The notes beneath the pieces were generated by a model. It saw only the letters and a program-made list of their open reading frames with translations. It was not told where the DNA came from and did no database searches. A stretch of DNA of 64,000 nt from Pseudolabrys sp. Lineage in GTDB: Bacteria; Pseudomonadota; Alphaproteobacteria; Rhizobiales; Xanthobacteraceae. Position 1 is the first letter of the stretch, and each line of letters begins with the position of its first letter. Of this stretch, positions 1-13,008 are shown one piece after another. Both the position numbers and the translations under genes were made by a program. Where the stretch lies: assembly GCA_029255525.1 (NCBI GenBank), contig JANLJK010000200.1, positions 67 through 64,066 of the forward strand, written 5' to 3'.

Positions 1-945
1 GCGCCGGATCTCGTCGCGGCCTTCCAATTGGCCGGTCTTGGTGGTGACGAGACCCAGCACCACCGTCTTGTCCTTGGGCAACAGCTTGAGCGGGTCGAAC
101 GAGCCAGCGCGCGGCGAATCGTACTCCATGAAGAAGCCGTGCACCTTGATCTTGTTGAACAGAATCTCCTGCACGGCCTCGTAACCGCCTGCGCCCATAT
201 AAGTCGACTTATAATTGCCGCGGCACATATGCATCGTGATGGTCATGTCGGATGGAATATCCGACATGGCGACGTTGATGAGGTCGGCATAAAGCTCGCC
301 AAGCTTTTCCGGATCGTCGCCGCGCGCGCGCATCTGCTGACGGTATTTCTCGTCGCACAGCATGGCGATGAACACCTCGTCGAGCTGCAGATAGCGGCAG
401 CCGGCATCGGCGAAGTCGCGCACCGCCTTGCGGTATGCCAAGCCTAGATCCTCGAACATCGCGGCGAGCTGCGGATAGACGTTCTTGTCGACAGGCGTGA
501 GGATCGGCCGGCCCCACAGCGCCGATGGCGCGGGGATCGTGATCTTCGGCGTCTCTCTGGTATGCGCGGCCACGAACTTGAAGTGCTCGATCATCGGATG
601 ATGTTTCGAGCCGATTTTGCCGGTGACCTTGGTGCCTTCGTTGCGCGTATTGACGGCGGCGAAGGCAACGCCGGTGTCCATGACGTGCTTCTCGATGCCG
701 TCGAGGCCCCACAGAAAATCGAGATGCCACCACGAACGGCGGAATTCGCCGTCCGTAATCGACTTGAGGCCGACCTCCTCCTGCTTCTTGATGACGCGCT
801 CGATCTCGCGGTCCTCGACCGCCTTCAGCGCCGCCGCGTCGATCTCACGTTTTGCGAACTTCTCGCGCGCTTCTTTCAGCGCCGCCGGACGCAAGAGGCT
901 GCCGACATGGTCGGCGCGAAACGGCGGCTTGGTGCGTTGAGACAT
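1..945 (-). CDS. Cobalamin-independent methionine synthase II family protein (catalytic-domain-only MetE-like), paralog 1; 3' end runs off the window
   Basis: Not in the ORF track (open-ended). Read manually from ATG 945: MSQRTKPPFRADHVGSLLRP...TDGEFRRSWWHLDF...LQLDEV...TMHMCRGNYKST...FMEYDS...VVLGLVTTKTG; collinear with the three upstream paralogs. Confidence 0.92.
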   Translation of the reverse strand, partial: MSQRTKPPFRADHVGSLLRPAALKEAREKFAKREIDAAALKAVEDREIERVIKKQEEVGLKSITDGEFRRSWWHLDFLWGLDGIEKHVMDTGVAFAAVNTRNEGTKVTGKIGSKHHPMIEHFKFVAAHTRETPKITIPAPSALWGRPILTPVDKNVYPQLAAMFEDLGLAYRKAVRDFADAGCRYLQLDEVFIAMLCDEKYRQQMRARGDDPEKLGELYADLINVAMSDIPSDMTITMHMCRGNYKSTYMGAGGYEAVQEILFNKIKVHGFFMEYDSPRAGSFDPLKLLPKDKTVVLGLVTTKTGQLEGRDEIRR

Positions 946-968
946 GGTCGTGCTTCTCCCTTTTCTTT

Positions 969-1090
969 CTTATCCCTCCCCTGAAAGGGGAGGGTCCGGC
1001 GCGAAGCGCCGGGGGTGGGGTCGCCTACAAATGCCCCCCACCCGGCTCGCTTCGCTCGCCACCCTCCCCCGCGAGCGGGGGAGGGATAAG
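969..1090. repeat. REP/RIME-like palindromic element (CCCTCCCC...GGGGAGGG class)
   Basis: Terminal inverted repeat CTTATCCCTCCCC / GGGGAGGGATAAG with nested hairpins (gcgaagcg / cgcttcgc). Confidence 0.85.
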
Positions 1091-1095
1091 GAAGA

Positions 1096-2205
1096 CTAGC
1101 CCCAAACCTCTTCCGCCAATTCGACGATCATACGCAGTTTGGCCCATTGCTCTTCCTCCGCCAGCACATTGCCTTCTTCCGTGGAAGCGAAGCCGCACTG
1201 CGGCGACAGACATAGCTGGTCGAGCGGCACGTACTTGGCCGCCTCGTCGATGCGACGCCGGATCTCGTCTTTCGATTCGAGCTGGCCGGTCTTCGAGGTG
1301 ACGAGCCCGAGCACGACCATCTTCCCCTTCGGCACGAAGCGCAGCGGCTCAAAGCCGCCGGCACGCTCGCTGTCGAACTCCATGAAGTAGCCGTGCACGT
1401 TGATGGCGTTGAACATCGCATCGGCCACCGGCTCGTAGCCGCCCGCGGCGATGAAGGTAGAGCGGAAGTTACCGCGGCACAGGTGCATGGTGATGGCCAT
1501 GTCCGACGGAATGTCGGCGATCGCCGTGTTGATCATACCGGCATAGGCCTCGAGCAGCGCGGCCGGGTCCTCGCCCCGGTCGCGGATCTTCTGCACCAGC
1601 TTCTCGTCGCAAAGATAAGTGAGGTTAACCTCGTCGAGCTGCAGATAGCGGCAGCCGGCGCCTGCAAAGGCGTTCACCACCTTGCGGTAGGTCGTGCCGA
1701 GATCGCGATAGAACTCGTTCATGTCGGGATAGACCGACGCCGGCACGGCCTCGCGGCCGTCGCGGAAATGCAGCGCCGACGGCGACGGGATCGTCATCTT
1801 CGGCGTCTCGCGCGTGTGCGCGGCGAGGAACTTGAAGTGCCCAATCATCGGATGATCGGTAAAATCGCCGAGCTTGCGCGCGACCCGCGTCAGCACCTGC
1901 TGCGGCTGCACGCCGCCTTGGAAACTGACCTTGCGCTGGTGCGGCACCGTCTCGATGCCGGGCAGCGCCGAGATGAAATCGGTCTGCCACGACTTCCGGC
2001 GAAATTCGCCGTCGGTGATCGACTTCAGGCCGACCGCTTCCTGCTTGCGGATCAGCGCCTCGATCTCGCGATCCTCGATCGCTGTCAATTGTTCGGCGGA
2101 GATCGCGCCGCTGGCACGGTCGGCGCGCGCCTGCTTCAGCGCGGCGGGCCGCAGCAGGCTGCCGACCTGGTCGGCACGAAAGGGCGGCCTGGTGCGTTGG
2201 GGCAT
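1096..2205 (-). CDS. Cobalamin-independent methionine synthase II family protein, paralog 2
   Basis: 369 aa; RADQVGSLLRP, TDGEFRR, Zn ligands HLC / MEFD / SPQCGF. Confidence 0.93.
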   Translation of the reverse strand: MPQRTRPPFRADQVGSLLRPAALKQARADRASGAISAEQLTAIEDREIEALIRKQEAVGLKSITDGEFRRKSWQTDFISALPGIETVPHQRKVSFQGGVQPQQVLTRVARKLGDFTDHPMIGHFKFLAAHTRETPKMTIPSPSALHFRDGREAVPASVYPDMNEFYRDLGTTYRKVVNAFAGAGCRYLQLDEVNLTYLCDEKLVQKIRDRGEDPAALLEAYAGMINTAIADIPSDMAITMHLCRGNFRSTFIAAGGYEPVADAMFNAINVHGYFMEFDSERAGGFEPLRFVPKGKMVVLGLVTSKTGQLESKDEIRRRIDEAAKYVPLDQLCLSPQCGFASTEEGNVLAEEEQWAKLRMIVELAEEVWG

Positions 2206-2221
2206 GGTTGTCTTCCTATGA

Positions 2222-2294
2222 TCCGTTCGTCCCCGCGAAAGCGGGAACCCAGTTCTTTTCCAGTTGGATTTCCGCTTTCGCGGGAATGAGCGGA
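2222..2294. repeat. REP-like palindrome (CCCGCGAAAGCGGG class)
   Basis: TCCCCGCGAAAGCGGGAACCCAG...GGATTTCCGCTTTCGCGGGAATGA; near copy at 22003-22075. Confidence 0.88.
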
Positions 2295-2302
2295 GGACTT
2301 GG

Positions 2303-3409
2303 CTATCCCCACACCTCTTCCGCCAATTCGACGATCATGCGCAGCTTGGCCCACTGCTCTTCCTCGGCCAGCACATTGCCTTCTTCCGTGGAAGCGAAGC
2401 CACATTGCGGCGACAGGCAAAGCTGCTCGAGCGGCACATATTTTGTTGCTTCGTCGATACGCCGCTTGATGTCGTCCTTCGCCTCCAACCGCCCGCTCTT
2501 GGAAGTGACCAGCCCCAGCACCACCAGCTTATTGCCCGTGAGATGGCGCAGCACATCGAAGCCACCGGCGCGGTCGGTGTCGAATTCGAGAAAATAACCG
2601 TCGATATTGACCTTGCCGAACAATTCCTCGGCGACGAATTCGTAGCCGCCGGAGGCGATGAAGGTAGAGCGAAAGTTGCCGCGGCAGGAATGCATGGTGA
2701 TCACCATGTCCTTGGGCTTGGCCTCCAGCGCCTTGTTGGTCATGCGCGTGTAGTGCCGCGGCAACGCGTCCGGATCGTCGCCGCGCTTTTTCGAGTCTTC
2801 ACGCTGCTTGGGATCGCAGATCATCGCCCAGGCTGTGTCGTCGAGTTGCAAATAGCGACACCCGGCGGCGTAGAAGGCCTTGATGGCGTTCTGGTAGGCG
2901 ATCGCGACATCGTCGAAATAGGCGTCGAGATCAGGATAGACGTCTTTGCTGATCGACTGCCGGCCCTGGCGGAAGTGCAGCGTCGAAGGCGCAGGGATCG
3001 TCATCTTCGGCGTCGCCTTGGCGTGCGCCTTGAGGAACTTGAAATGGTCGAGATGCGGATGGGTCGGCGAGAAACCGATCTTGCCGACAATGCGGACACT
3101 TTCCGCCTTGGTATCGACACCGGCGAAATGAATGCCCTCGCCGGTCTGGTAGAATTCCGCGCCATCGAGGCCCTTGTAGAAATCAAAATGCCACCAGGAG
3201 CGGCGGAATTCGCCATCGGAGGCGAGCTTCAGGCCGACCTCTTCCTGCTTCCTGATGACCTTCTCGATCTCACGATCTTCGATGTCCTTCAGCGCCGCGG
3301 CATCGATCTCGCGCTTGGCGAATTTGGCGCGCGCTTCCTTCAGCGCGGCGGGCCGCAGCAGGCTGCCGACATGGTCGGCACGAAAGGGTGGCGTGGTGCG
3401 TGAAGACAT
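2303..3409 (-). CDS. Cobalamin-independent methionine synthase II family protein, paralog 3
   Basis: Start trimmed to ATG 3409 (MSSRTTPPFRADHVG) by alignment with paralogs; HSC / LEFD / SPQCGF motifs. Confidence 0.93.
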   Translation of the reverse strand: MSSRTTPPFRADHVGSLLRPAALKEARAKFAKREIDAAALKDIEDREIEKVIRKQEEVGLKLASDGEFRRSWWHFDFYKGLDGAEFYQTGEGIHFAGVDTKAESVRIVGKIGFSPTHPHLDHFKFLKAHAKATPKMTIPAPSTLHFRQGRQSISKDVYPDLDAYFDDVAIAYQNAIKAFYAAGCRYLQLDDTAWAMICDPKQREDSKKRGDDPDALPRHYTRMTNKALEAKPKDMVITMHSCRGNFRSTFIASGGYEFVAEELFGKVNIDGYFLEFDTDRAGGFDVLRHLTGNKLVVLGLVTSKSGRLEAKDDIKRRIDEATKYVPLEQLCLSPQCGFASTEEGNVLAEEEQWAKLRMIVELAEEVWG

Positions 3410-3508
3410 TTTGGTTTCGCTCCCGGATTTCTTATTCACGGCCGATATGTTTCGGCTCGGTCTTCGTTGCCGATGGCCGGCTTGCCCGGTCATCGCATCT
3501 TACTCCGC

Positions 3509-3604
3509 TGTCATGCCCGCATAAGCGGGCATCCAGTAATCACAGGCACCGAGAGTGAATCGAGGCGCGGAGTTGACTGGGTCCCCGCTTTCGCGGGGAC
3601 GACA
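3509..3604. repeat. REP-like palindromic element
   Basis: TGTCATGCCCGCATAAGCGGGCATCCAG...CTGGGTCCCCGCTTTCGCGGGGACGACA; two hairpin arms related to 2222-2294. Confidence 0.85.
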
Positions 3605-3611
3605 CGCCGGC

Positions 3612-4721
3612 TCAGCCCCAAACTTCCTTGGAGATATCGACGATCATCTTCAGCTTGGCCCACTGCTCTTCCTCGGCCAGCACGTTGCCTTCTTCCGTGG
3701 AAGCGAAGCCGCACTGCGGCGACAGTGCAAGCTGGTCGAGCGCGACGAACTTGGTCGCCTCCTCGATGCGCTTCTTCACATCCTCTTTCTTCTCGAGGGT
3801 GCCGCTCTTCGAGGTGACGAGGCCGAGCACGACGATCTTGTTGCCCTTGGGCAGGAAGCGCAGCGGCTCGAAACCGCCGGCGCGGTCGGTGTCGTATTCA
3901 AGGAAGTAGCCGTCGTAGTTGCACTTGGCGAGCAGGCTCTCGGCCACCGGCTCGTAGCCGCCCGACGAGATGAAGGTGGAGCGGAAGTTGCCGCGGCAGA
4001 CATGCGTGGTGATCACCATGTCGGCGGGCTTGGCCTCCAGCGCCTTATTGATGCACTTGGTGTAGGTGTCCTGCAGGTGATCGACGTCGAGGCCGCGTTC
4101 GCGCGCCTTCTTGAGCTCCTCCTGCGAGCACAAATAAGCCCAGGCGGTGTCGTCGAACTGCAGATAGCGGCAGCCGGCGGCGTAGAACGCCTTGATCGCG
4201 TTCTGATAGGCGACCGCGAGATCATCGAAGATGGCGTCTCGATTGGCATAAGCCGACGCGCTGACCGAGCCCGGTTCGAGGCGGAAGTGCATCACCGTCG
4301 GCGACGGGATCGTCATCTTCGGCGTCTTGGTCGCATGCGCCTTCAGGAACTTGAAGTGCTCCAGCATCGGGTGATTGGCAGCGAAGCCGATCTTGCCGTT
4401 GACGCGCAGCACCTTCATCTTGGTCTGCATGCCCTGAAACTGGATGCCGTGGTCGGAGTCCTCGACCGTGACGCCGTCGAGCATGCCGAAGAAGTCGTAG
4501 TGCCACCAGGCGCGGCGGAATTCGCCGTCGGTAATGGCGTGCAGCCCGATCTCTTCCTGCTTCTTGATGATCTTCTCGATCTCGCGATCCTCAACTTCCT
4601 TGAGTTGAGCCGCAGTGATCTCGCCCTTCTCGCGCTTGGCGCGCGCTTCCTTCACCGGCGCGGTACGCAGGATGCTGCCGACATGATCGGCACGGAAAGG
4701 CGGTCTGGTCCTCTGAGCCAT
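3612..4721 (-). CDS. Cobalamin-independent methionine synthase II family protein, paralog 4
   Basis: 369 aa; RADHVGSILR, HVC / LEYD / SPQCGF; GGAGG SD upstream. Confidence 0.93.
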   Translation of the reverse strand: MAQRTRPPFRADHVGSILRTAPVKEARAKREKGEITAAQLKEVEDREIEKIIKKQEEIGLHAITDGEFRRAWWHYDFFGMLDGVTVEDSDHGIQFQGMQTKMKVLRVNGKIGFAANHPMLEHFKFLKAHATKTPKMTIPSPTVMHFRLEPGSVSASAYANRDAIFDDLAVAYQNAIKAFYAAGCRYLQFDDTAWAYLCSQEELKKARERGLDVDHLQDTYTKCINKALEAKPADMVITTHVCRGNFRSTFISSGGYEPVAESLLAKCNYDGYFLEYDTDRAGGFEPLRFLPKGNKIVVLGLVTSKSGTLEKKEDVKKRIEEATKFVALDQLALSPQCGFASTEEGNVLAEEEQWAKLKMIVDISKEVWG

Positions 4722-4767
4722 TTAGGTTTTCCTCCGCGTATTGCCCCCGGCCGCAACGGCGGGGATC

Positions 4768-5634
4768 TCAAGGTGGGTGAGCCATAGCACGGTCCGCGCC
4801 GTGCGTCTTGCACGCCACTTCGCATGCGTAGCGCGCCGTTTCAACGGCACCGCCGAAGGAAAAATAATGCGGGGCAATGTCGCCGAGGCCTTCGGCCGCG
4901 GCGAGCGTCTCGATGATGCGGTCGGGCCCGACATGGCCGATCAGGCCGGTCGCCGCGCCCGAGACGAGGCCGCGCAAGGACGCGCCGACGCCGCAGCGCT
5001 TCGCGTAACGGAAGAGCGCCGGCATGCTGGTCGGTCCGGCCATGCCGACCTTGACCGGCCAGTTGATGCCGCAGGCGCGCAACTGCTGCAGCCAGGCAAG
5101 TATCCGCTCGGGCGCGAAGGAGAACTGGCTCACGATATGGACCATTAGGCCCTGCGCCGTGGCCACCGCGATCTTCTGATCGAGCGCGGCCTCCAGGCGT
5201 TCAGGCGGAATGCGCGGATGACCTTCCGGATAAGCGCCGATACCGATCTCTTCGAAACCCGCTTCGCGCAGCCGGCCCTTGCGGATGACCGCCAGCGCGT
5301 CGTGGAATGGCCCGGCCGCTTCGACATCGCCGCCAATCACCAGCAGACGGCGGACATCGGCCTCGCCGCGCAAGCCCGCGAGCAGATCTTGCAAATGTTG
5401 CTCGCTCGGCAGCCGGCGCGCCGCGATGTGCACCACCGGCTCCAGCCCCGCCTTGCGCAAGGCCGCCGCGCCCTGCACGATCTCGGCGCGCGACACCGTC
5501 GGCACCGCCGTGAAATAAATCTCCGTGCCCGCCGGCAGGACCGTCGCGAGCGCGGCGATTTCGGCTGTGTCCGGCCGCGTCGCTTCGAGCGAAAACTTTC
5601 GCCCGAAGTCCGCGGCCGGTGCGAGCGCGGTCAT
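4768..5634 (-). CDS. metF: Methylenetetrahydrofolate reductase-like flavoprotein (atypical MetF subfamily)
   Basis: FSLE, PVVHIAAR, LVIGGD, GAYPEGHP, QKI, VSQFSF, VGMAGP motifs; start trimmed to ATG 5634 to avoid overlap with the upstream gene. Confidence 0.8.
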   Translation of the reverse strand: MTALAPAADFGRKFSLEATRPDTAEIAALATVLPAGTEIYFTAVPTVSRAEIVQGAAALRKAGLEPVVHIAARRLPSEQHLQDLLAGLRGEADVRRLLVIGGDVEAAGPFHDALAVIRKGRLREAGFEEIGIGAYPEGHPRIPPERLEAALDQKIAVATAQGLMVHIVSQFSFAPERILAWLQQLRACGINWPVKVGMAGPTSMPALFRYAKRCGVGASLRGLVSGAATGLIGHVGPDRIIETLAAAEGLGDIAPHYFSFGGAVETARYACEVACKTHGADRAMAHPP

Positions 5635-5650
5635 CGACCAAGTCCGGCGC

Positions 5651-7075
5651 TTAATCGCGGCGGCGGGAAATAACGAAAGACTCGTCATAGAACCACAGGC
5701 CCCCGTGCTGCTGCAGCACATCGCGCGTGGCGTCGATGTAGCGGCGATCGCTGTTGACGTCGGAGAGCCGGTCGTCCTCGACCTGCGCGACATAGATCGC
5801 CGCATTCCAGGCCGCGAGCAGCGTGGACGTACCGATCGACGAGGAGATCTCCGAGGGCAGCGTGTGCATGTCGTAACGGAACAGCGAGCGCTGATCGGAA
5901 TAGGCGTTGAAGTTGAGGTCGCGGCCGGCCACCCCCAACTCGTGCTTCACCGCCTTCAAGAGGTCATGGCGGTTATGCATGAACGGATTATCGCCCGGCC
6001 ACACCTTGTTGATGATGTCCATGCCTGGATCGTTGCCGTGCGACTGGATCGCGATCATGCGGCCACCGGGCCCGAGCGCACGCGCGAGCGGCGCCAGCAC
6101 GCGCTTGGCCTTGAATTCCAGCGAGGCACGGGCACGATAAGGCTGCGAGGCGATGACGAGGTCGTAATCGGCGACGGTACCGCCGGGCTTCGGCACGATC
6201 TGGTCAAGCAGGAATTTGTGATCGTTGCGGTACAGCACCAGGATCACCGGCCGCTCATAGACCGGGTTGCCGCTCTTCGGCGACACCCGCGCCTTCCAGC
6301 TTTCCGCCAGGAAGGGCTCCAGATCGGTGATCTGCTTCTCGAACGAATGGGCGGTATTGCCGTCCATCGCCACCTCTTTCCAGATCAAGCTGGTGGCGGC
6401 GCTGAGCGACTTTGTGGCGAGCCATGGCGCCTCGGCATAAGCGAGGTTGGTGAGCACGACGACGCTGGAGGGATGCTCGACGAAACGATCCGGCAGTTTC
6501 TGCAGCGTGAGACGCACGTCCTCCAGGCTGATCTCCTTGCCGACGATGTAGAACGGCATGGTCGGGAAGCGGTCATGCATCGAGCGCATCACGCGCGCCA
6601 GTACGGTGCCGTCGCCGACGCCGGCGTCGAACACGCGCACGGCCGGCGGCCGCGGATGGATGTTGGCGAGCTCAAGGCTGACGCGGTTGGCGACTTCCCA
6701 CTTCTCGCTGCACGTATTCACGAACAGCAGGTATTTCTGCCGGTTATCGAAAAAGCGGAAATTGCGCTGCGGATCGTCGCTGGCCTGGCCCTCGGCCACC
6801 AGCGGTGCCGGCGGCTTCACCACCGGCAGCGGGGACGGCGTGTAGCCGGACGTGGAGGAAGGATCGAACAGAACGCGCCGGCGACCCGGCGCATCTTCAT
6901 GACCGAGAGACATGAATGCCCTTATGCGTTCGAGCGTGTCGGTGGTGATACGACCGCCATTGCGAAGGCGGCTGGCGAGCTTGCCGTCGTTGACGGCGCG
7001 ACGGCCGAAGGTGGATTCGGCTAATCCGCGCTGGCGGCAGAAATCAGTGATTTCCTGGATGATTTGCTCGTTCAT
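5651..7075 (-). CDS. Cro/XRE-like HTH domain fused to a class I SAM-dependent methyltransferase-fold domain, function unknown
   Basis: N-term AESTFGRRAVNDGKLASRLRNGG, Pro/Ser linker, then VFDAGVGDG (motif I), GKEIS, YDLVIASQPY, LGPGG; AAGGA SD before ATG 7075. Confidence 0.75.
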   Translation of the reverse strand: MNEQIIQEITDFCRQRGLAESTFGRRAVNDGKLASRLRNGGRITTDTLERIRAFMSLGHEDAPGRRRVLFDPSSTSGYTPSPLPVVKPPAPLVAEGQASDDPQRNFRFFDNRQKYLLFVNTCSEKWEVANRVSLELANIHPRPPAVRVFDAGVGDGTVLARVMRSMHDRFPTMPFYIVGKEISLEDVRLTLQKLPDRFVEHPSSVVVLTNLAYAEAPWLATKSLSAATSLIWKEVAMDGNTAHSFEKQITDLEPFLAESWKARVSPKSGNPVYERPVILVLYRNDHKFLLDQIVPKPGGTVADYDLVIASQPYRARASLEFKAKRVLAPLARALGPGGRMIAIQSHGNDPGMDIINKVWPGDNPFMHNRHDLLKAVKHELGVAGRDLNFNAYSDQRSLFRYDMHTLPSEISSSIGTSTLLAAWNAAIYVAQVEDDRLSDVNSDRRYIDATRDVLQQHGGLWFYDESFVISRRRD

Positions 7076-7292
7076 AGCGCAATCCTTGGCGCGTTTCCCG
7101 TTCGGCTCTAACGGCCGTTGACGGTGCAAGCGAAACAACTCGCTCGCTTTCCGTCAACCACAAAACACATATGGGAAAGATGGGCAGAGTGGGTGGGCAG
7201 AATAAAATTACCGAAAATAACGGTATTCAAGTTGGAATGCAGTAGCTTCCCGCACCGCACGATGCTTCGCGAGATTTGTTAAATTTTTTGAA

Positions 7293-7315
7293 TGGGATAT
7301 ATCCCACTAAGTGGG
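7293..7315. promoter_or_regulatory. Overlapping palindromes, candidate operator
   Basis: TGGGATATATCCCA (7293-7306) and CCCACT-A-AGTGGG (7303-7315) in an AT-rich intergenic region. Confidence 0.45.
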
Positions 7316-7322
7316 CAAACGG

Positions 7323-8339
7323 TTACGCCGAAATTGCCGCTTCCTTCCGCGCGTCCGCCGCGAGGTCGACGCTGCGATAGGCGGTGTCGACGACGATGAC
7401 GCCGCCGACGGCGCGCGACACGCAGGCGCAAATCCTCTTGTTTTCTTCCCGCTCGTGCTCGCTGAAGAAAACGTCGCGATGATCGATCTCGCTTGAGGAC
7501 TCGAGCACGTTGAGCACGCAAAGCCCACATTCGCCACGGCGGCAATCCCACATCACATCGACGCCGGCCTCGACCAGCGCATCGAGCATGGTCTTGTTCT
7601 CGGGCACCAGCACCTCGATGCCCTGCGGCGAGGTGCGCACACGGAAAGCCTGCGGCGCGAAGCGGCCGCTGGAGCCGAACGTCTCGTAACGCAGGCCGGA
7701 GGTCTTGCGGCCGCTCTCCGCCCAGGCGCTGCGCGCAGCATCGAGCAGACGCATCGGCCCACACAGATAAAGCTGCCCCTCCGGATCGAGCCTGGCGATC
7801 TCGGATGCGAAATCGAGACGCCGCCCTTCGGAAGAGACGAATACCGCGAGCTTATCGCCGAGCTGCGCCGACAGCTCAGGCAGGAATGCAAGTTCTTCGC
7901 GCGAGCGCGCGGCATAGAGAAAGCGGAACGACATGCCGCGACGCAGCAACGTCGCCGCCATGCCAAGCATCGGCGTAATGCCGATACCGCCGGCGACCAA
8001 CAGATAGTCCGGACGACTGAATTCGAGTTCAAAATGGTTCTTCGCCGACGACACTGAGACGCGCGCGCCTTCCCGGAGCGCGTGCATCGCGCGCGAACCG
8101 CCGCGGCCCTGATCGTCGCGCTTGACGGCGATGCGATAGACGGCGCCGTCAGGCTCGCCGACGAGCGAGTATGATCGCAGGTCGGCACGGCCATCGATGA
8201 CGACGCCGATGTCGATATGGCTGCCCGGCGCCCAGACCGGCACGCCGCTGTCGGGCGCGATGTCGAACTGACGGATTGTCGGCGTCACGTCGCGGATGGC
8301 GCGGATCGTCGCCGTGGTCCAGGTAATGTCGCTGCGCAT
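7323..8339 (-). CDS. vanB: Vanillate O-demethylase oxidoreductase (PDR/VanB family)
   Basis: RSYSL, GGIGITP, C-terminal 2Fe-2S CRRGECGLC...C; near vanA. Confidence 0.9.
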   Translation of the reverse strand: MRSDITWTTATIRAIRDVTPTIRQFDIAPDSGVPVWAPGSHIDIGVVIDGRADLRSYSLVGEPDGAVYRIAVKRDDQGRGGSRAMHALREGARVSVSSAKNHFELEFSRPDYLLVAGGIGITPMLGMAATLLRRGMSFRFLYAARSREELAFLPELSAQLGDKLAVFVSSEGRRLDFASEIARLDPEGQLYLCGPMRLLDAARSAWAESGRKTSGLRYETFGSSGRFAPQAFRVRTSPQGIEVLVPENKTMLDALVEAGVDVMWDCRRGECGLCVLNVLESSSEIDHRDVFFSEHEREENKRICACVSRAVGGVIVVDTAYRSVDLAADARKEAAISA

Positions 8340-8360
8340 GATCGGTTCCTCGGCAAGCCG

Positions 8361-9119
8361 TTAGAAATCATTACGCCGGCGGATCAACACCGCGCCGGGC
8401 ACCAGCTCGCGCGTACGTTGGTTACGCAACGCGAGTTGCAGATTGCGATGGGCAAGCCGCGCATGTTCGCGCATCAGCGCTTCGGCGCGACCGCCTTCGC
8501 GATCCTCAATAGCGCGCACGACGCAACGGTGATGCTCCTGCGCGATGGTGAGGATGTACTGCGCTTCGGGCAGCATCGCCTGCACCTTGACGAAGCCGCT
8601 CTCGGACGCAAACGGCAGACTGACCACGCGATCGATCTGGCGCGCCAGCGCTGGGCTGTCGGCGGCGACAACCAGAAGCGTGTGGAATTCGCGGTTGAAG
8701 CCGACATACTCTGAAAAATCGTCGATCGTCAGCTTCGGCCGCACGACCAGTTCATCGAGTTTTTCGAGGCAAGCCTTGAGATCGGCAAGACGCGAAGCGC
8801 TGACGCCCCGCTCGGCAGCAAAGCGCGCGGCAAGACCTTCAAGTGTGCCGCGCACTTCAATGGCATCGTGAATGTCGGCTTCGGAGAATGCCTTTACGGC
8901 GAAACCGCCGGAAGGAATGCCTTCGAGCAGCCCCTCCTCTTCCAGACGCACCAGCGCCATACGGATCGGTGTCCGCGAAATGCCGAGCCGCTCAACGACC
9001 GACAGTTCGGAAATACGGTCGCCGGGCTTGAGTTCGCCGGACAGGATGAGATCGCGCAACGCCAGTTGCGCCTTCACCGTCTGCGACGACGAGACATTCT
9101 CCAGGGACGTCGCCGCCAT
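8361..9119 (-). CDS. vanR: GntR family (FCD) regulator, VanR-like
   Basis: ILSGELKPGDRISE...LGISRTPIR wHTH and FCD domain (NREFH, EHH, MREH); between vanA and vanB. Confidence 0.85.
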   Translation of the reverse strand: MAATSLENVSSSQTVKAQLALRDLILSGELKPGDRISELSVVERLGISRTPIRMALVRLEEEGLLEGIPSGGFAVKAFSEADIHDAIEVRGTLEGLAARFAAERGVSASRLADLKACLEKLDELVVRPKLTIDDFSEYVGFNREFHTLLVVAADSPALARQIDRVVSLPFASESGFVKVQAMLPEAQYILTIAQEHHRCVVRAIEDREGGRAEALMREHARLAHRNLQLALRNQRTRELVPGAVLIRRRNDF

Positions 9120-9124
9120 CGCCG

Positions 9125-10177
9125 CTACTCGGCCGCTTCGAGAATGGGCCGGCGCTCCTCCGCCGCAATCATGCGGTCGATCAGGCGGCGCGCCCACATC
9201 GCCCCGGCGTCGATGTTCAGGTTGTAAAAGACATGGCCGGGATTTTCGTCGATGGCGATCTGCTGCGCCTCGAGGATGGTTTCGTCCTCGCGGAAAATGC
9301 GGGAGACGCCCTCACGCAGTTCCGTGGTGCGGCGCTGGTCGTTGCGTTTGTGATTGCGCACGAACGCCCAGTGATAGTGACAAGTACGGTCGGTCTCCGG
9401 CGTGATTGTATTGAGCACAAAGCCATTGACGCCTTGCGAGCGATCCCCCTCCGGCGCGCCGGTGCCGGCTGGCGCAACGCCGACATCGATGGCGATGGTA
9501 CACGGCGCCTCGAAATTGATGATCTGCCAGCGATCGACCTTACCCGGCTTGCCGAGTTGGCCGGCCCAGAAGGGCGGCGGATCGATGTCGCGCATCCAGC
9601 GCGTGATCGTGGCGGTGCGGTCGGTATGCGTCGGCTCGAACGGCGCTTCCGCAACAGCACGGTTGCCGATGCTGGAGCTGTGCACGAAGGTCTCGTGCGT
9701 AAGATCCATCAGGTTGTCGATGACGAGGCGATAGTCGCATTTGACGCGAATGGTCTTGCCGTCGCCTTCCCACTCCGGGTCGTCGTTCCAATGCAGATCC
9801 GGGACCTTGGTGGGGTCGGCCAGCGCGGGATCGCCCGGCCAGACCCAGACAAAGCGATGCTTCTCAACGACCGGGAAGGTGCGTACGCAGGCCGACGGGT
9901 TGATCGTTTCCTGCGACGGCATGTGCGTGCAGCGGCCGTGCGGATCGAAAACGAGACCATGATAGCCGCACACGACCTCATCGCCTTCGAGCCGCCCCAT
10001 CGATAGCGGCAGCAGGCGATGCCAACAGGCGTCTTCCAGCGCGACGGCGCGGCCGTCGGCGCGGCGATAGAACACCATCTTTTTGTTGCAGATGACGCGC
10101 GGCAGCAACTCGCGGCGCAATTCGGCATCCCAAGTGGCGGCGTACCACGCATTGAGCGGGAAGGTGCGGTTCGGCAT
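9125..10177 (-). CDS. vanA: Vanillate O-demethylase Rieske oxygenase subunit
   Basis: FPLNAWY, Rieske CWH...CGYH, mononuclear Fe DNLMDLTHETFVH, NLNIDAG. Confidence 0.92.
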   Translation of the reverse strand: MPNRTFPLNAWYAATWDAELRRELLPRVICNKKMVFYRRADGRAVALEDACWHRLLPLSMGRLEGDEVVCGYHGLVFDPHGRCTHMPSQETINPSACVRTFPVVEKHRFVWVWPGDPALADPTKVPDLHWNDDPEWEGDGKTIRVKCDYRLVIDNLMDLTHETFVHSSSIGNRAVAEAPFEPTHTDRTATITRWMRDIDPPPFWAGQLGKPGKVDRWQIINFEAPCTIAIDVGVAPAGTGAPEGDRSQGVNGFVLNTITPETDRTCHYHWAFVRNHKRNDQRRTTELREGVSRIFREDETILEAQQIAIDENPGHVFYNLNIDAGAMWARRLIDRMIAAEERRPILEAAE

Positions 10178-10202
10178 GTTTGTTTCGTCCCTAGAGAATA
10201 CA

Positions 10203-10307
10203 ATCTGTATACAATATTATGCATCGCCCCGGCAATTGGATTATTTCTGCGGTAAAAACTCCGTTTTTAGCAATTCTGCATGCCATTCGCGTCAATATGG
10301 TATACAT
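10203..10307. promoter_or_regulatory. Two GntR-type GTATAC-centred palindromes upstream of vanA (candidate VanR operators)
   Basis: TGTATACA at 10206-10213 and GGTATACA at 10299-10306. Confidence 0.55.
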
Positions 10308-10358
10308 AAATTCCCCGGCGTGTGGGCCAGCGGGCAGCCGATATCGCGGGGCGGCAAC

Positions 10359-10388
10359 AAAAAACCCCGGCGCGCGCACCGGGGTTTT
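10359..10388 (-). terminator. Intrinsic terminator after pcaG (bidirectional shape)
   Basis: AAAACCCCGG-8 nt-CCGGGGTTTT, followed by a T-tract on the minus strand. Confidence 0.8.
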
Positions 10389-10429
10389 CCGCTTTGGGGG
10401 CTTCTCCGCTTTGTTTGCGGAGTCGCCGA

Positions 10430-11044
10430 TCAGATGTCGAAGAACACCGTCTCGTTGTCGCCCTGCACACGGATATTGAAGCGATAGACGACCGTGTCGC
10501 CCTGCACTTCCTTCTTCGCAATCAGAGTGTCGCGGCGATCCGCCGGCACCAACGACAGAATCTGATCGGTCGCATTGGCCGCCTCGTCCGCGAAGTACAG
10601 GCGGGTGTATACCTGCCGCAGCATGCCGCGCGAGTAGATGCAGAACCCGATATGCGGCGCCTGCGGCTTGCCGTTCGGGCCGGGCACCGAACCGGGCTTG
10701 ATGGTCGAGAAGCCGAATTCGCCATTCGGATTAACGGCAGAGCGGCCGAAACCCTTGAACTGCGTATTGGGTCTACGACTGTCGTAGGGGCTCGCGTAAC
10801 GCCCCTGCGCATCCGCCTGCCAGATTTCCAGCATCGCGTCGTTGATCGGCTTGCCATCGCCATCGACGATCTGACCTTCGATACGGATCTTCTCGCCGGT
10901 AGCGTCAGGCGTGATCAGATTGTCGCCGATCGTTTCCTTCCAGCTATAGGTGCCGTCAGGATCCCACTTGAGCCGACCCTTGGGGGTGAGGCCGTATGCG
11001 AAGTATGGGCCGACGGTCTGCGAGGGGGTAATGATTTCAGACAT
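10430..11044 (-). CDS. pcaG: Protocatechuate 3,4-dioxygenase alpha subunit
   Basis: TPSQTVGPY, EIWQADAQGRY, TIKPG, APHI, ETVFFDI. Confidence 0.95.
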   Translation of the reverse strand: MSEIITPSQTVGPYFAYGLTPKGRLKWDPDGTYSWKETIGDNLITPDATGEKIRIEGQIVDGDGKPINDAMLEIWQADAQGRYASPYDSRRPNTQFKGFGRSAVNPNGEFGFSTIKPGSVPGPNGKPQAPHIGFCIYSRGMLRQVYTRLYFADEAANATDQILSLVPADRRDTLIAKKEVQGDTVVYRFNIRVQGDNETVFFDI

Positions 11045-11059
11045 AAGGGCGTGTCCGTC

Positions 11060-11767
11060 TCAGTGCTTGTCGGTGTCGAGCGGGGTCGCTTCGCGGCCGC
11101 GCAACACGATGTCGAAGCGGAAGGCGAGCGCCCAGTCGGGAATAGTGTTGTCCAGATCGAAGCTGGAGACCATGCGCAGGCGCGCCTGCTCGTCCGGCAC
11201 CGAATTGAAGATCGGATCGAACGGGAACAGGTAATCGCCTGGGAAATACATCTGAGTGATCAGGCGCGACAGGAACGAGTGGCCGAACACCGAGAAGTGG
11301 ATGTGGTTCGGCCGCCAGGCGTTGTGGTGATTGCCCCACGGATAAGCGCCCGGCTTGATGGTGATGAACTTGTAGTAGCCGTTTTTGTCGGTGACGGTGC
11401 GACCGCCACCGGTGAAGTTCGGATCGAGCGGCGCCGGATGCTGGTCGACGAGGTGCACGTAGCGGCCGCAGGCATTGGCCTGCCAGATCTCGACCAACGT
11501 ATCCGGGATCGGGCGTTTGTCCTCGTCGTACACGTGACCGTGCACGATGATGCGCTCGCCGAGCGGCTCGCCCTTGCCCTGCTTGGTGAGGTCGTTGTCG
11601 CCTTCCTGGATCACATCATGGCCATAGACCGGCCCGGTGAGCTCGGACAGCGTATGCGGCATCAGGATCAGCGGCTTCGACGGCGAGCGTTTGACCGTGC
11701 TTTTGTATTCCGGAGAGAGGTGCTTGGGATAAGCACTCAGGCTCTCCCGGGGGTAAATGAGCGACAT
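11060..11767 (-). CDS. pcaH: Protocatechuate 3,4-dioxygenase beta subunit
   Basis: ELTGP, GERIIVHG, WQANACGRY, PGAYPW...WRPNHIH Fe ligands. Confidence 0.95.
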   Translation of the reverse strand: MSLIYPRESLSAYPKHLSPEYKSTVKRSPSKPLILMPHTLSELTGPVYGHDVIQEGDNDLTKQGKGEPLGERIIVHGHVYDEDKRPIPDTLVEIWQANACGRYVHLVDQHPAPLDPNFTGGGRTVTDKNGYYKFITIKPGAYPWGNHHNAWRPNHIHFSVFGHSFLSRLITQMYFPGDYLFPFDPIFNSVPDEQARLRMVSSFDLDNTIPDWALAFRFDIVLRGREATPLDTDKH

Positions 11768-11802
11768 TCTTGTTGTCCTTCGTTGCCCGTTTTCGTTTGC
11801 CT

Positions 11803-13008
11803 TTACGACAGGCGTTCCAAGGCGAGCGACGCGCCCTGGCCCACGCCCACACACATGGTGGCGATCGCACGTTTGCCGCCACGCTCTTCCAGGCCATGCG
11901 TCGCCGTCAGCACGAGACGCGCGCCCGACATGCCGAGCGGATGGCCGAGCGCGATGGCGCCGCCATGCGGATTAACGTGCTCAGCATCATCCGACAGACC
12001 GAGTTGACGCATCACGGCCAGCGACTGCGAGGCGAAGGCCTCGTTCAGCTCGATGAGATCGTAGTCGCCGATCTTATGACCAAGCCGCGCCAGCAGCTTC
12101 TGCGTCGACGGCACCGGGCCGATGCCCATGATGCGCGGCGGCACCGCCCCCGAGGCCATGCCGAGGATACGCGCGCGCGGCGTCAGGCCATGGGCCTTCA
12201 CCGCCTCTTCCGACGCGACGATGAGCGCGGCCGCGCCGTCATTGACGCCCGACGCGTTGCCGGCTGTGACTGTGCCAGGATTGCGGAACGGCGTCTTCAG
12301 CTTGGCGAGTTGATCCATCGTCGTCTCGCGCGGGTGCTCGTCCTTGTCGACCGTCACCACCTCGCCCTTACGGCCGGCGATCTCGACCGGGACGATCTCC
12401 TTGGCGAAGTAGCCGGCGGCGATCGCTTTGGCGGCGCGCTGCTGCGAGCGGAACGCGAAGGCGTCCTGATCGGCGCGGGTGACCTGGAATTCCTCGGCAA
12501 CGTTCTCGCCGGTCTCCGGCATCGAGTCGACGCCGTACTGCGCCTTCATCAGCGGATTGATGAAACGCCAGCCGATGGTGGTGTCGAATATCTCGGCCGA
12601 GCGCGAGAAGGCTTCCGTCGCCTTGCCCTGCACGAAGGGCGCGCGCGTCATCGACTCGACGCCGCCGGCGATGGCGAAGTCCATGTCGCCGGCACGGATG
12701 GCGCGGGCGGCCGCGCCGACGGCCTCGAGGCCCGAGGCGCAGAGGCGGTTGAGCGTGACACCCGGCACGCTGACCGGCAGACCGGCCAGCAGCACGGCCA
12801 TGCGCGCGACGTTGCGGTTGTCCTCACCGGCCTGGTTGGCGCAGCCATAGAAGACCTCGTCGAGCTTCGACCAGTCGACCTTCGGGTTGCGGGCCATCAA
12901 AGCCTTGATCGGAATGGCAGCAAGGTCGTCGGTGCGCACCTTGGCAAGCGACCCGGCATAACGGCCAATCGGGGTGCGAACGGCGTCGCAAATGAACACG
13001 TCACGCAT
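11803..13008 (-). CDS. pcaF: 3-oxoadipyl-CoA thiolase
   Basis: GCANQAGEDNRNVARM, NRLCASG, NEAFA, GHPLG, CVGVGQG. Confidence 0.93.
   Translation of the reverse strand: MRDVFICDAVRTPIGRYAGSLAKVRTDDLAAIPIKALMARNPKVDWSKLDEVFYGCANQAGEDNRNVARMAVLLAGLPVSVPGVTLNRLCASGLEAVGAAARAIRAGDMDFAIAGGVESMTRAPFVQGKATEAFSRSAEIFDTTIGWRFINPLMKAQYGVDSMPETGENVAEEFQVTRADQDAFAFRSQQRAAKAIAAGYFAKEIVPVEIAGRKGEVVTVDKDEHPRETTMDQLAKLKTPFRNPGTVTAGNASGVNDGAAALIVASEEAVKAHGLTPRARILGMASGAVPPRIMGIGPVPSTQKLLARLGHKIGDYDLIELNEAFASQSLAVMRQLGLSDDAEHVNPHGGAIALGHPLGMSGARLVLTATHGLEERGGKRAIATMCVGVGQGASLALERLS

Follow-up and report, generated by a model that had tools for sequence, protein, structure and literature searches.

Regulators in which a DNA-binding domain is fused to a SAM-methyltransferase-like domain are known from the SahR and SamR regulons (PMC4239095), where they head their own operon and act on sahR, metF, metH, metK and ahcY. 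The type 4 MTHFR S6MTHFR (PDB 7XG9) is encoded in the ligM-metF-ligH cluster of Sphingobium SYK-6 (PMC11868366), and the core methionine synthases MesA, MesB, MesC and MesD consist of the MetE catalytic domain only (PMC7857596, PMC7005905). A further group of short MetE-like proteins, the PRK06520/YxjH clade, includes a YxjH relative whose gene is under methionine T-box control and shares a transcript with luxS (PMC6004538). This clade carries a methionine synthase annotation and is widespread, being present in 56 of 400 sampled alphaproteobacterial genomes and also in Bacillus and Lactococcus (controls), and in the literature searched we found neither a measured activity for any PRK06520 protein nor a tested methyl donor for the clade. 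In enzymes of the BHMT/MmuM type, zinc-activated homocysteine accepts a methyl group from a nutrient.

We analysed a stretch of 64,000 nt from the soil bacterium Pseudolabrys sp. (the window), which holds six co-oriented genes on the minus strand. The head gene (7075..5651, 474 aa), encoding an HTH joined to a methyltransferase fold, is followed by a MetF-like gene (5634..4768, 288 aa) and by four MetE-like genes, a (4721..3612), b (3409..2303), c (2205..1096) and d (945..<1), the last of which ends with the contig after codon 337. The intergenic gaps, from head to tail, are 16, 46, 202, 97 and 150 bp, and the coordinates thus agree with the earlier note, which had described six co-oriented genes with gaps of 16 and 46 bp at the head. 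The three long gaps between paralogs carry REP-like repeats that recur genome-wide, namely hairpins at 3410..3611, a hairpin with one long stem (-45.5 kcal/mol) at 2206..2302 and a repeat present on many contigs at 946..1095; neither TTGAC nor the operator box described below was found inside any paralog gap. The gap between MetF and paralog a is tight (33-82 bp in 15 of 16 cases), and 14 of 42 gaps between paralogs measure at most 15 bp, one of these being a mis-call of -612; those long gaps that were inspected consist of REP hairpins. A search for known RNAs and riboswitches over positions 1-11000 returned just two chance matches to miRNA families, both on REP hairpins, and a sigma-70 and terminator scan gave nothing that exceeded shuffled controls. 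From its layout, the block is likely a single operon.

The head protein comprises a Cro-like four-helix head (residues 1-57), a disordered linker (61-106) and a class I SAM-methyltransferase fold (112-471), and its AlphaFold model (pLDDT 88) places no wing on the four-helix head. Pfam and NCBIfam scans gave zero matches, a PDB sequence search with the family profile returned no real homologs, an Atlas comparison retrieved its own unnamed clusters at 0.99 with all methyltransferase leads below 0.9, and the viral contigs searched held no relative. Its best structural matches are small-molecule N-methyltransferases, led in Foldseek by histamine N-methyltransferase (E 7e-8, identity 12%), and the DAGxGDG, GKE and SQPY motifs are conserved in its homologs. 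The gene is present in 139 of 200 genomes of the family. In 48 homolog loci the methyltransferase-fold body is encoded without the HTH and without a separate HTH gene, and these were compared with 114 HTH-bearing loci, excluding duplicates and 6 truncated loci; the SAM motifs and SQPY are retained in both forms.

The evidence for regulation comes from the upstream sequences. The palindrome TGGG-N6-CCCA, the predicted binding site of the head protein, lies at 7293..7306 as the sole perfect site in the window, and a run of four CCCA half-sites ahead of a conserved, -35-like TTGAC (7153..7197, minus strand) forms the predicted promoter of the block, where the sigma-70 scan made no call. The box was found upstream of 50 of 114 HTH-bearing homologs (a perfect copy being absent from the other 64) versus 0 of 48 HTH-less ones, and the CCCA..TTGAC arrangement in 91/114 versus 1/48. 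Upstream of sahR it occurs in 11 of 15 genomes with the head gene and in 0 of 15 lacking it, and a CCCAC half-site abuts the TTGAC of metK in 13/14 versus 0/15, a pattern that was set after the sequences had been inspected; the genomes in these comparisons are related, hence the counts are not independent. SahR was not found in 5/5 genomes of the MT>metK>ahcY clade (MT being the head gene), and in all five metF carries a perfect box. The predicted box promoters are thus its own, sahR and metF, with half-sites at metK, and the regulator would fill the SahR gap of the Bradyrhizobium-like clade. Perfect boxes are lacking at all 16 class-level promoters of sahR, at all 14 loci that carry the second MTHFR type in MT-positive genomes and at the 3 importer promoters. 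The background in the Pseudolabrys genome is 14 of 3677 upstream regions with the box. Genome-wide, the box does not exceed its reversed control in frequency, and only its position is informative. Rank 1 of the box scan is a circular result, the window's own site having gone into the matrix, and ranks 2 and 4, an MTHFR on contig C174 and a binding protein on contig C341, were dropped from the regulon because their box is not conserved in other genomes. We also rejected the idea that this is the SahR box: a distinct palindrome, which we take from its pattern to be of the SahR type, lies upstream of sahR and ahcY and occurs in MT-negative genomes as well, and at the sahR locus on contig C397, where the SahR-like gene proper is located, both boxes stand side by side. 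Since the box tracks the HTH gene, the head protein is probably a transcription factor regulating the methyl cycle of the cell, and the earlier proposal that it controls the block probably holds on this operator evidence. There are good grounds for expecting that the HTH binds TGGG-N6-CCCA while the methyltransferase-fold body senses SAM or SAH, and the protein likely represses its own block and other methyl-cycle promoters.

The MetF-like protein scores 31.5 bits with PF02219, and its best PDB match is 7XG9 (E 5e-55), the next MTHFR reaching only 9e-8. It keeps the catalytic Glu/Asp/Gln and the equivalents of Pro49, Arg78, Cys219 and Phe269 of type 4, with substitutions at three signature sites (Leu48 to Val, Phe215 to Tyr and Pro268 to Ser). 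Motif by motif, loop b2-a3 reads Val-Pro, bulky and not Gly, together with the Arg; helix a8 has Tyr and Cys; and loop b8-a11 has Ser-Phe-Gly-Gly in place of Pro-Phe-Gly-Gly, the Pro occurring in just 5 of 67 aligned relatives. We therefore consider it quite likely, from the 7XG9 match and this motif check, that the enzyme is a type-4-like MTHFR running oxidatively, from methyl-THF to methylene-THF, in keeping with the possibly catabolic working of the block suggested in the earlier note.

All four MetE-like proteins have PF01717 as their sole Pfam domain above cut-off, score 593, 587, 517 and 409 bits with NF005085/PRK06520 (cut-off 313) and share 51-67% pairwise identity. The zinc ligands H-x-C, E and C are present in all four, the last Cys of d falling within the 66 contig bases that precede the window. 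A fifth close copy, 85% identical to d and with Gln replacing the His ligand, is cut by the end of contig C138, which carries beyond it the genes that in relatives lie behind the array; the claim of at least four core-MetE paralogs is therefore right, with five likely, the array probably continuing on this contig. As had been anticipated, the paralogs are no set of recent duplicates that could replace one another: they sort into four old positional ortholog clades (a to d, with c on a divergent branch of its clade), identity being 77-86% within and 59-67% between clades, with 24 clade-diagnostic columns, several of which adjoin the conserved motifs DGE, D-D/E and H-x-C. They have neither full-length MetE's folate-binding domain at the N-terminus nor the partner gene of split MetE, PF08267 giving no match in the 85%-complete genome apart from sub-threshold ones in the paralogs themselves. 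They fall far below the cut-offs of PRK00957 and PRK04326, unlike MesA, MesB and MesC with their corrinoid-protein donor and methanogen or Wood-Ljungdahl hosts, and reach only 29-50 bits against a cut-off of 392 with PRK09121, which we take to be the MesD-type model; no gene the size of MesX (the DUF1852 partner of MesD) occurs in the block. In the genome, no free corrinoid protein was found, B12-binding domains being confined to MetH and to one long ORF that is presumably a mutase. Because the genome also encodes sahR-metF-metH, ordinary methionine synthesis is handled elsewhere and does not require the paralogs. We see about an even chance that the paralogs are methyltransferases acting on homocysteine, each with a donor of its own and independently of folate and corrinoids.

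Taken together, these features are compatible with a regulated operon of methyl-scavenging enzymes, a model that we hold with moderate confidence as a whole. The head protein would repress the operon and other methyl-cycle promoters, a set of four or five zinc enzymes, old and divergent, would pass methyl groups to homocysteine from various small molecules that the cell imports, and the MTHFR would oxidise methyl-THF. Overall, methyl groups would be salvaged into methionine/SAM and into the one-carbon pool according to methyl status, alongside the housekeeping sahR-metF-metH and not for everyday methionine. The Ser at the Pro268 signature counts against this model, which also leaves the methyl-THF source for the MTHFR unexplained, a LigM/GcvT-type THF-dependent demethylase not being found in the 85%-complete genome. 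So does the distribution of the block: linkage of the three families stood within the genus (20/20 loci) and failed as a widely conserved unit (0/40 other loci of the family, plus a few distant loci), the core conserved across loci being the head gene with MTHFR or metK-ahcY. The families nonetheless occur together in many genomes: in a class sample of 400, PRK06520 is present in 25/38 MT-positive versus 31/362 MT-negative genomes and at least three copies in 13/38 versus 3/362, 13 of these 16 genomes carrying the regulator.

As for the donors, a vanA-like Rieske oxygenase, a GntR regulator and a vanB-like reductase (7323..10177, minus strand; Pfam VanA_C/Rieske, GntR/FCD, Fer2/NAD/FAD) lie directly upstream only in the genome studied, the vanA family occurring in no other annotated locus. 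Beyond them lie genes (10430..13008, minus strand) that we read as pcaF-, pcaH- and pcaG-like protocatechuate genes, named from their sequences rather than from a family scan; the pcaH/G-like family recurs in 19/20 genus loci, and a LigM scoring above cut-off lies within the array in 3/20. The MetE-like gene lies behind an ABC importer in 6 of 13 MT>metK>ahcY loci, one of the importer's binding proteins matching PDB 4EY3/4EYG/4EYK (E 1e-223). These aromatic-acid importers, LigM, vanAB and pca point to methoxy-aromatics, and some donors may, with low confidence, be methoxy-benzoates, but the known link between LigM and type 4 MTHFR could by itself account for the pca, van and ligM neighbours.

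A rather unlikely alternative is that the methionine cycle runs in reverse and that the head protein acts as an enzyme, either in addition or chiefly. The paralogs would methylate homocysteine from the donor to give methionine, MetK would make SAM, the head protein would use SAM to methylate tetrahydrofolate, the type 4 MTHFR would yield methylene-THF and AhcY would regenerate homocysteine. This would supply the missing methyl-THF and account for the head gene in multi-copy genomes, and it fits the N-methyltransferase matches, the motifs retained in both forms of the protein, the 18 of 48 HTH-less loci that adjoin MTHFR or ahcY and two gammaproteobacterial loci with the order MT>type 4 MTHFR>PfkB kinase>metK>ahcY. 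However, no folate site was identified in the head protein, no methyl-cycle gene adjoins the other 30 HTH-less loci, type 4 MTHFR is found in just 15/38 MT-positive genomes of the class sample (400 alphaproteobacterial genomes) but also in 58/362 MT-negative ones, and SahR provides a precedent for a methyltransferase fold as a pure sensor. Improbable as it is, such a backward cycle could constitute a new demethylation pathway for lignin-derived methoxy-aromatics and other methylated compounds, in which the MetE-like zinc-thiolate enzymes would transfer the methyl groups to homocysteine with no need of B12, folate or oxygen and a bifunctional repressor-enzyme would hand them on from SAM to tetrahydrofolate, for oxidation by the type 4 MTHFR into the one-carbon pool.

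It is also unlikely that the array is a lineage-specific add-on behind a regulator-MTHFR operon, with other zinc-thiolate chemistry outside the methyl cycle, such as transferring alkyl groups or opening epoxides by means of another thiol, for which epoxyalkane:CoM transferase is a precedent with the MetE fold. The missing joint linkage outside the genus would be expected, the genome holds 11 single-domain MetE-like loci in varied contexts, and PRK06520 is found in 31/362 MT-negative genomes. Yet MetE-like genes come together with the head gene in different layouts as well, immediately after it in loci L088 and L089, within the fetched region of 10/13 metK-type loci and in L159, L160, L216, L230, L236 and L237. 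The paralogs moreover retain motifs that bind homocysteine in MetE, and the T-box of the YxjH relative speaks for methionine. That the paralogs are back-up, B12-independent methionine synthases using methyl-THF, perhaps with the adjacent MetF as a folate-carrying partner replacing the N-terminal domain, is quite improbable: the tight MetF gap, the lack of full-length MetE in the 85%-complete genome and the NCBI subfamily name would suit it, but the MetF belongs to the oxidising type, a type 4 match occurs in just 12 of 56 PRK06520-positive genomes (a hand tally) and four clades are kept although one copy would do.

With its four clades of orthologs, its candidate donors and a regulator whose box is defined, the locus makes the question of the donor directly testable; a homocysteine-dependent aryl O-demethylase, if true, would be a further route of lignin-monomer demethylation, free of oxygen and B12. 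Compared with SahR and SamR, the head protein shares the C-terminal class I SAM-methyltransferase fold, as modelled, and a palindrome at SAM-cycle promoters, but the palindrome is a different, predicted box and the DNA-binding part is a Cro-like four-helix bundle with no Pfam match instead of an ArsR-type winged HTH; unlike them it has HTH-less forms, and it coexists with SahR in Pseudolabrys. S6MTHFR is the closest structural homolog of the MetF-like protein, which is linked to the head gene and to MetE-like genes rather than to ligM and ligH. The folate-independent homocysteine methylation modelled for the paralogs matches that of the Mes core synthases, from which they differ in family scores, in a block without a partner gene and in an aerobic host. 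With BHMT and MmuM they would share the reaction, carried out by another protein family and by several paralogs. The nearest relatives remain the PRK06520/YxjG-YxjH proteins, by NCBIfam membership, the match of paralog a to 1YPX (E 1.8e-132) and the H-x-C/E/C zinc site, and among these the Pseudolabrys set stands out in that four to five clades are retained in tandem within a putatively regulated operon.

The six co-oriented genes of the earlier note were found where it had placed them, all on the minus strand: the head gene (7075..5651), encoding a protein with an HTH and a class I SAM-methyltransferase fold (MT), a MetF-like, type 4 MTHFR gene (5634..4768) and the MetE-like paralogs a (4721..3612), b (3409..2303), c (2205..1096) and d (945..<1), with gaps from head to tail of 16, 46, 202, 97 and 150 bp, the first two being the head gaps it had given. 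Since the window starts 66 bases into its contig, paralog d is cut by the assembly. Contig C138 of the host genome terminates within a fifth MetE-like copy (C138:6250-6960), 85% identical to d and with Gln replacing the zinc-ligand His; it is a recent duplicate of d and may be decaying or altered. After it come acyl-CoA dehydrogenase, MFS, HlyD and MarR-like genes, as they do after the array in relatives, so the array probably continues onto C138. Those close homologs that bear a name are from Pseudolabrys, hence the genus assignment used here. The claim of at least four MetE paralogs was borne out, with four copies of the PRK06520 subfamily in the window and the fifth on C138. Judged from sequence, the block is likely one transcript. 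Between paralogs, 14 of 42 gaps measure ≤15 bp (one through a mis-call), and none of the 42 contains TTGAC or the candidate operator TGGG-N6-CCCA (the box); the longer gaps inspected hold REP-like hairpins. In the window, REP-like repeats lie between paralogs at 946-1095, 2206-2302 and 3410-3611, a different repeat family in each gap, recurring on dozens of contigs.

Family-model scans gave no family match for the head protein, and the methyltransferase matches of 88 homologs were all weak. In its AlphaFold model (pLDDT 88) a disordered linker joins a four-helix head to a Rossmann-like body, and Foldseek put histamine N-methyltransferase on top (E 7e-8), with many other class I methyltransferases below. 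MT was present in all 36 genus genomes, in 139 of 200 at family level, 38 of 400 at class level and 16 of 400 at phylum level, and also in MAGs with Actinomycetota, Chloroflexota and Beta/Gammaproteobacteria labels; many homologs are without the four-helix head. Upstream of MT genes with a Cro-like HTH head (HTH+), we found the box plus runs of CCCA half-sites adjoining TTGAC. The perfect box was present at 50 of 114 HTH+ versus 0 of 48 HTH-less loci, and the CCCA..TTGAC arrangement at 91 versus 1, the HTH+ set being rich in close relatives; none of the 48 HTH-less loci showed a separate HTH gene. The same promoter architecture accompanies an HTH+ MT in a record titled Klebsiella pneumoniae MAG, a label that seems doubtful. 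We infer that MT binds the predicted box.

Of 22 box sites in the host genome 8 are intergenic, and one site adjoins the SahR box at sahR-metF-metH. Among 15 family genomes with MT (MT+) and 15 without (MT-), chosen without prior view of their promoters, 11 versus 0 have a box ≤260 nt upstream of sahR, and SahR of five MT- genomes is as near to the host SahR as that of MT+ genomes. At metK, the TTGAC is directly adjoined by a half-site in 13/14 MT+ versus 0/15 MT- genomes, a pattern defined after seeing the sequences. In the MT>metK>ahcY clade SahR was not found in any of five genomes, and metF has a perfect box in all five (background 14/3677). Counting against this operator reading, the perfect box is missing at class-level sahR promoters (16/16), second-MTHFR loci of MT+ genomes (14/14) and importer promoters (3/3). 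A third, YitJ-domain-like MTHFR of the host genome (C174:855-1757) has a perfect box 86 bp upstream; this type is found in 12/15 MT+ versus 2/15 MT- family genomes.

The block MTHFR matched 7XG9 best in a PDB search (E 5e-55), the next MTHFR reaching only 9e-8. It retains the equivalents of Glu, Asp, Gln, Pro49, Arg78, Cys219 and Phe269 of the 7XG9 enzyme, but Leu48 is replaced by Val, Phe215 by Tyr and Pro268 by Ser. Type 4 MTHFRs usually have a THF-dependent demethylase as partner. None was found in the 85%-complete host genome, where PF01571 gave one weak partial match and LigM no match; LigM above cut-off lies within the array in 3/20 genus loci. PMC11868366 demonstrates methyl-THF oxidation by the 7XG9 enzyme and defines three motifs. 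The likeliest model, to which we give about even chances, is that the head protein would act as a methyl-status-sensing repressor controlling the operon, the paralogs would move methyl groups of different imported compounds to homocysteine, and the MTHFR would drain methyl-THF to methylene-THF. The step lacking in it is that from methionine to methyl-THF, in a host genome without LigM. Were the head protein a SAM:THF methyltransferase, this gap would be closed and HTH-less operons accounted for; we consider this unlikely.

The linkage of the three families expected by the earlier note held within the genus and not at the family loci sampled from other genera: in long regions fetched for 20 of 36 genus genomes, 20/20 loci run MT > type 4 MTHFR > 1-5 MetE-like genes, versus 0 of 40 family loci, spread over other genera, with all three together. 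In these 40, MT is followed by type 4 MTHFR (21), metK-ahcY (13), a MetE-like array (2), ahcY then MTHFR (1), another MTHFR type (1) or neither (2); of the 13 metK-type loci, 10 have MetE-like genes elsewhere in the fetched region. One genome (G201) has two MT copies, L117 and L118, one preceding metK-ahcY and the other type 4 MTHFR. At 38 class-level loci the most frequent neighbour is a second MTHFR type (11 loci). Shuffled orders include MT>type 4>PfkB kinase>metK>ahcY (L242, L272), MT>second MTHFR>MetE-like (L236, L237) and MT>LigM-like (L225); L242 and L272 share one gene string, with HTH-less MT, in gammaproteobacterial MAGs. In the sample of 400 class genomes, PRK06520 was found in 25/38 MT+ versus 31/362 MT- and type 4 MTHFR in 15/38 versus 58/362 (hand tallies), and at least three PRK06520 copies, with up to four candidates scored per genome, in 13/38 versus 3/362; in all MT+/MT- comparisons related genomes were counted that are not independent, and significance is overstated. 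That the array is an unrelated add-on seems unlikely.

Paralogs a-d all score above the NF005085/PRK06520 cut-off, have the catalytic domain as sole Pfam domain above cut-off and keep their zinc ligands intact; the nearest solved structure to the MetE-like proteins is 1YPX (E 1.8e-132). In a FastTree tree of 87 proteins from the fetched loci, read for topology only, four clades correspond to array positions and are common to the genus and two loci of other genera, with identities of 77-86% within and 59-67% between clades. Several of 24 clade-diagnostic columns adjoin the DGE, D-D/E and H-x-C motifs, and these columns may line the predicted donor pocket. A scan of the host genome gave 13 matches at 11 single-domain MetE-like loci. 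Besides the array paralogs, six single-domain MetE-like genes lie on contigs C449, C4, C55, C283, C330 and C344, those on C283 and C344 adjoining branched-chain-type ABC importers. In the 85%-complete host genome sahR-metF-metH stands apart from the block, B12-binding domains are confined to MetH and one long ORF, and no MetE N-terminal domain was found. Of the readings weighed, a biosynthetic back-up role of the paralogs is the least probable.

A branched-chain-type ABC importer precedes a MetE-like gene in 6/13 metK-type loci, directly in 5 (gaps 19-154 bp), and in 3 a gene that we take to be purU-like lies near the pair. One importer binding protein (L125) matches 4EY3/4EYG/4EYK (E 1e-223), presumably hydroxybenzoate, vanillate and protocatechuate complexes, and shares 84-90% identity with two others; 4EVS we take to be RPA0985. 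pcaH/G-like genes lie upstream of the block in 19/20 genus loci, and in this window alone an inserted vanA-gntR-vanB-like cassette (7323-10177) separates the head gene from the pca genes. In other genus members LigM lies inside the array instead, so that the locus alternates between two systems for vanillate demethylation. The related binding protein RPA0985 binds 4-hydroxybenzoate (PMC3223731). The aromatic-acid importer match and the pca/van neighbours point, circumstantially, to methoxy-benzoates as predicted donors for at least the a-like clade. Several genus members (among L036-L055) have a Peripla_BP_6 binding protein between paralogs b and c, for which the structure search gave no close solved relative.

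Searches of the full-text literature, with subscription journals outside their scope, turned up no paper about the MT family, the box or a tested PRK06520 donor; PMC2885750, PMC10861871, PMC12134932, PMC6079105 and 10.64898/2025.12.19.695462 contributed nothing decisive. The block is real, undescribed in that literature and assembled from partly known parts. Core methionine synthases MesA-D are described in PMC7857596 and PMC7005905, whose passages on them do not treat the PRK06520 clade, and the YxjH relative is under methionine-T-box control and co-transcribed with luxS (PMC6004538). Compared with the ArsR-type, SAH-responsive SahR (PMC4239095, PMC8877191), MT probably works like that regulator but is not a member of its family.
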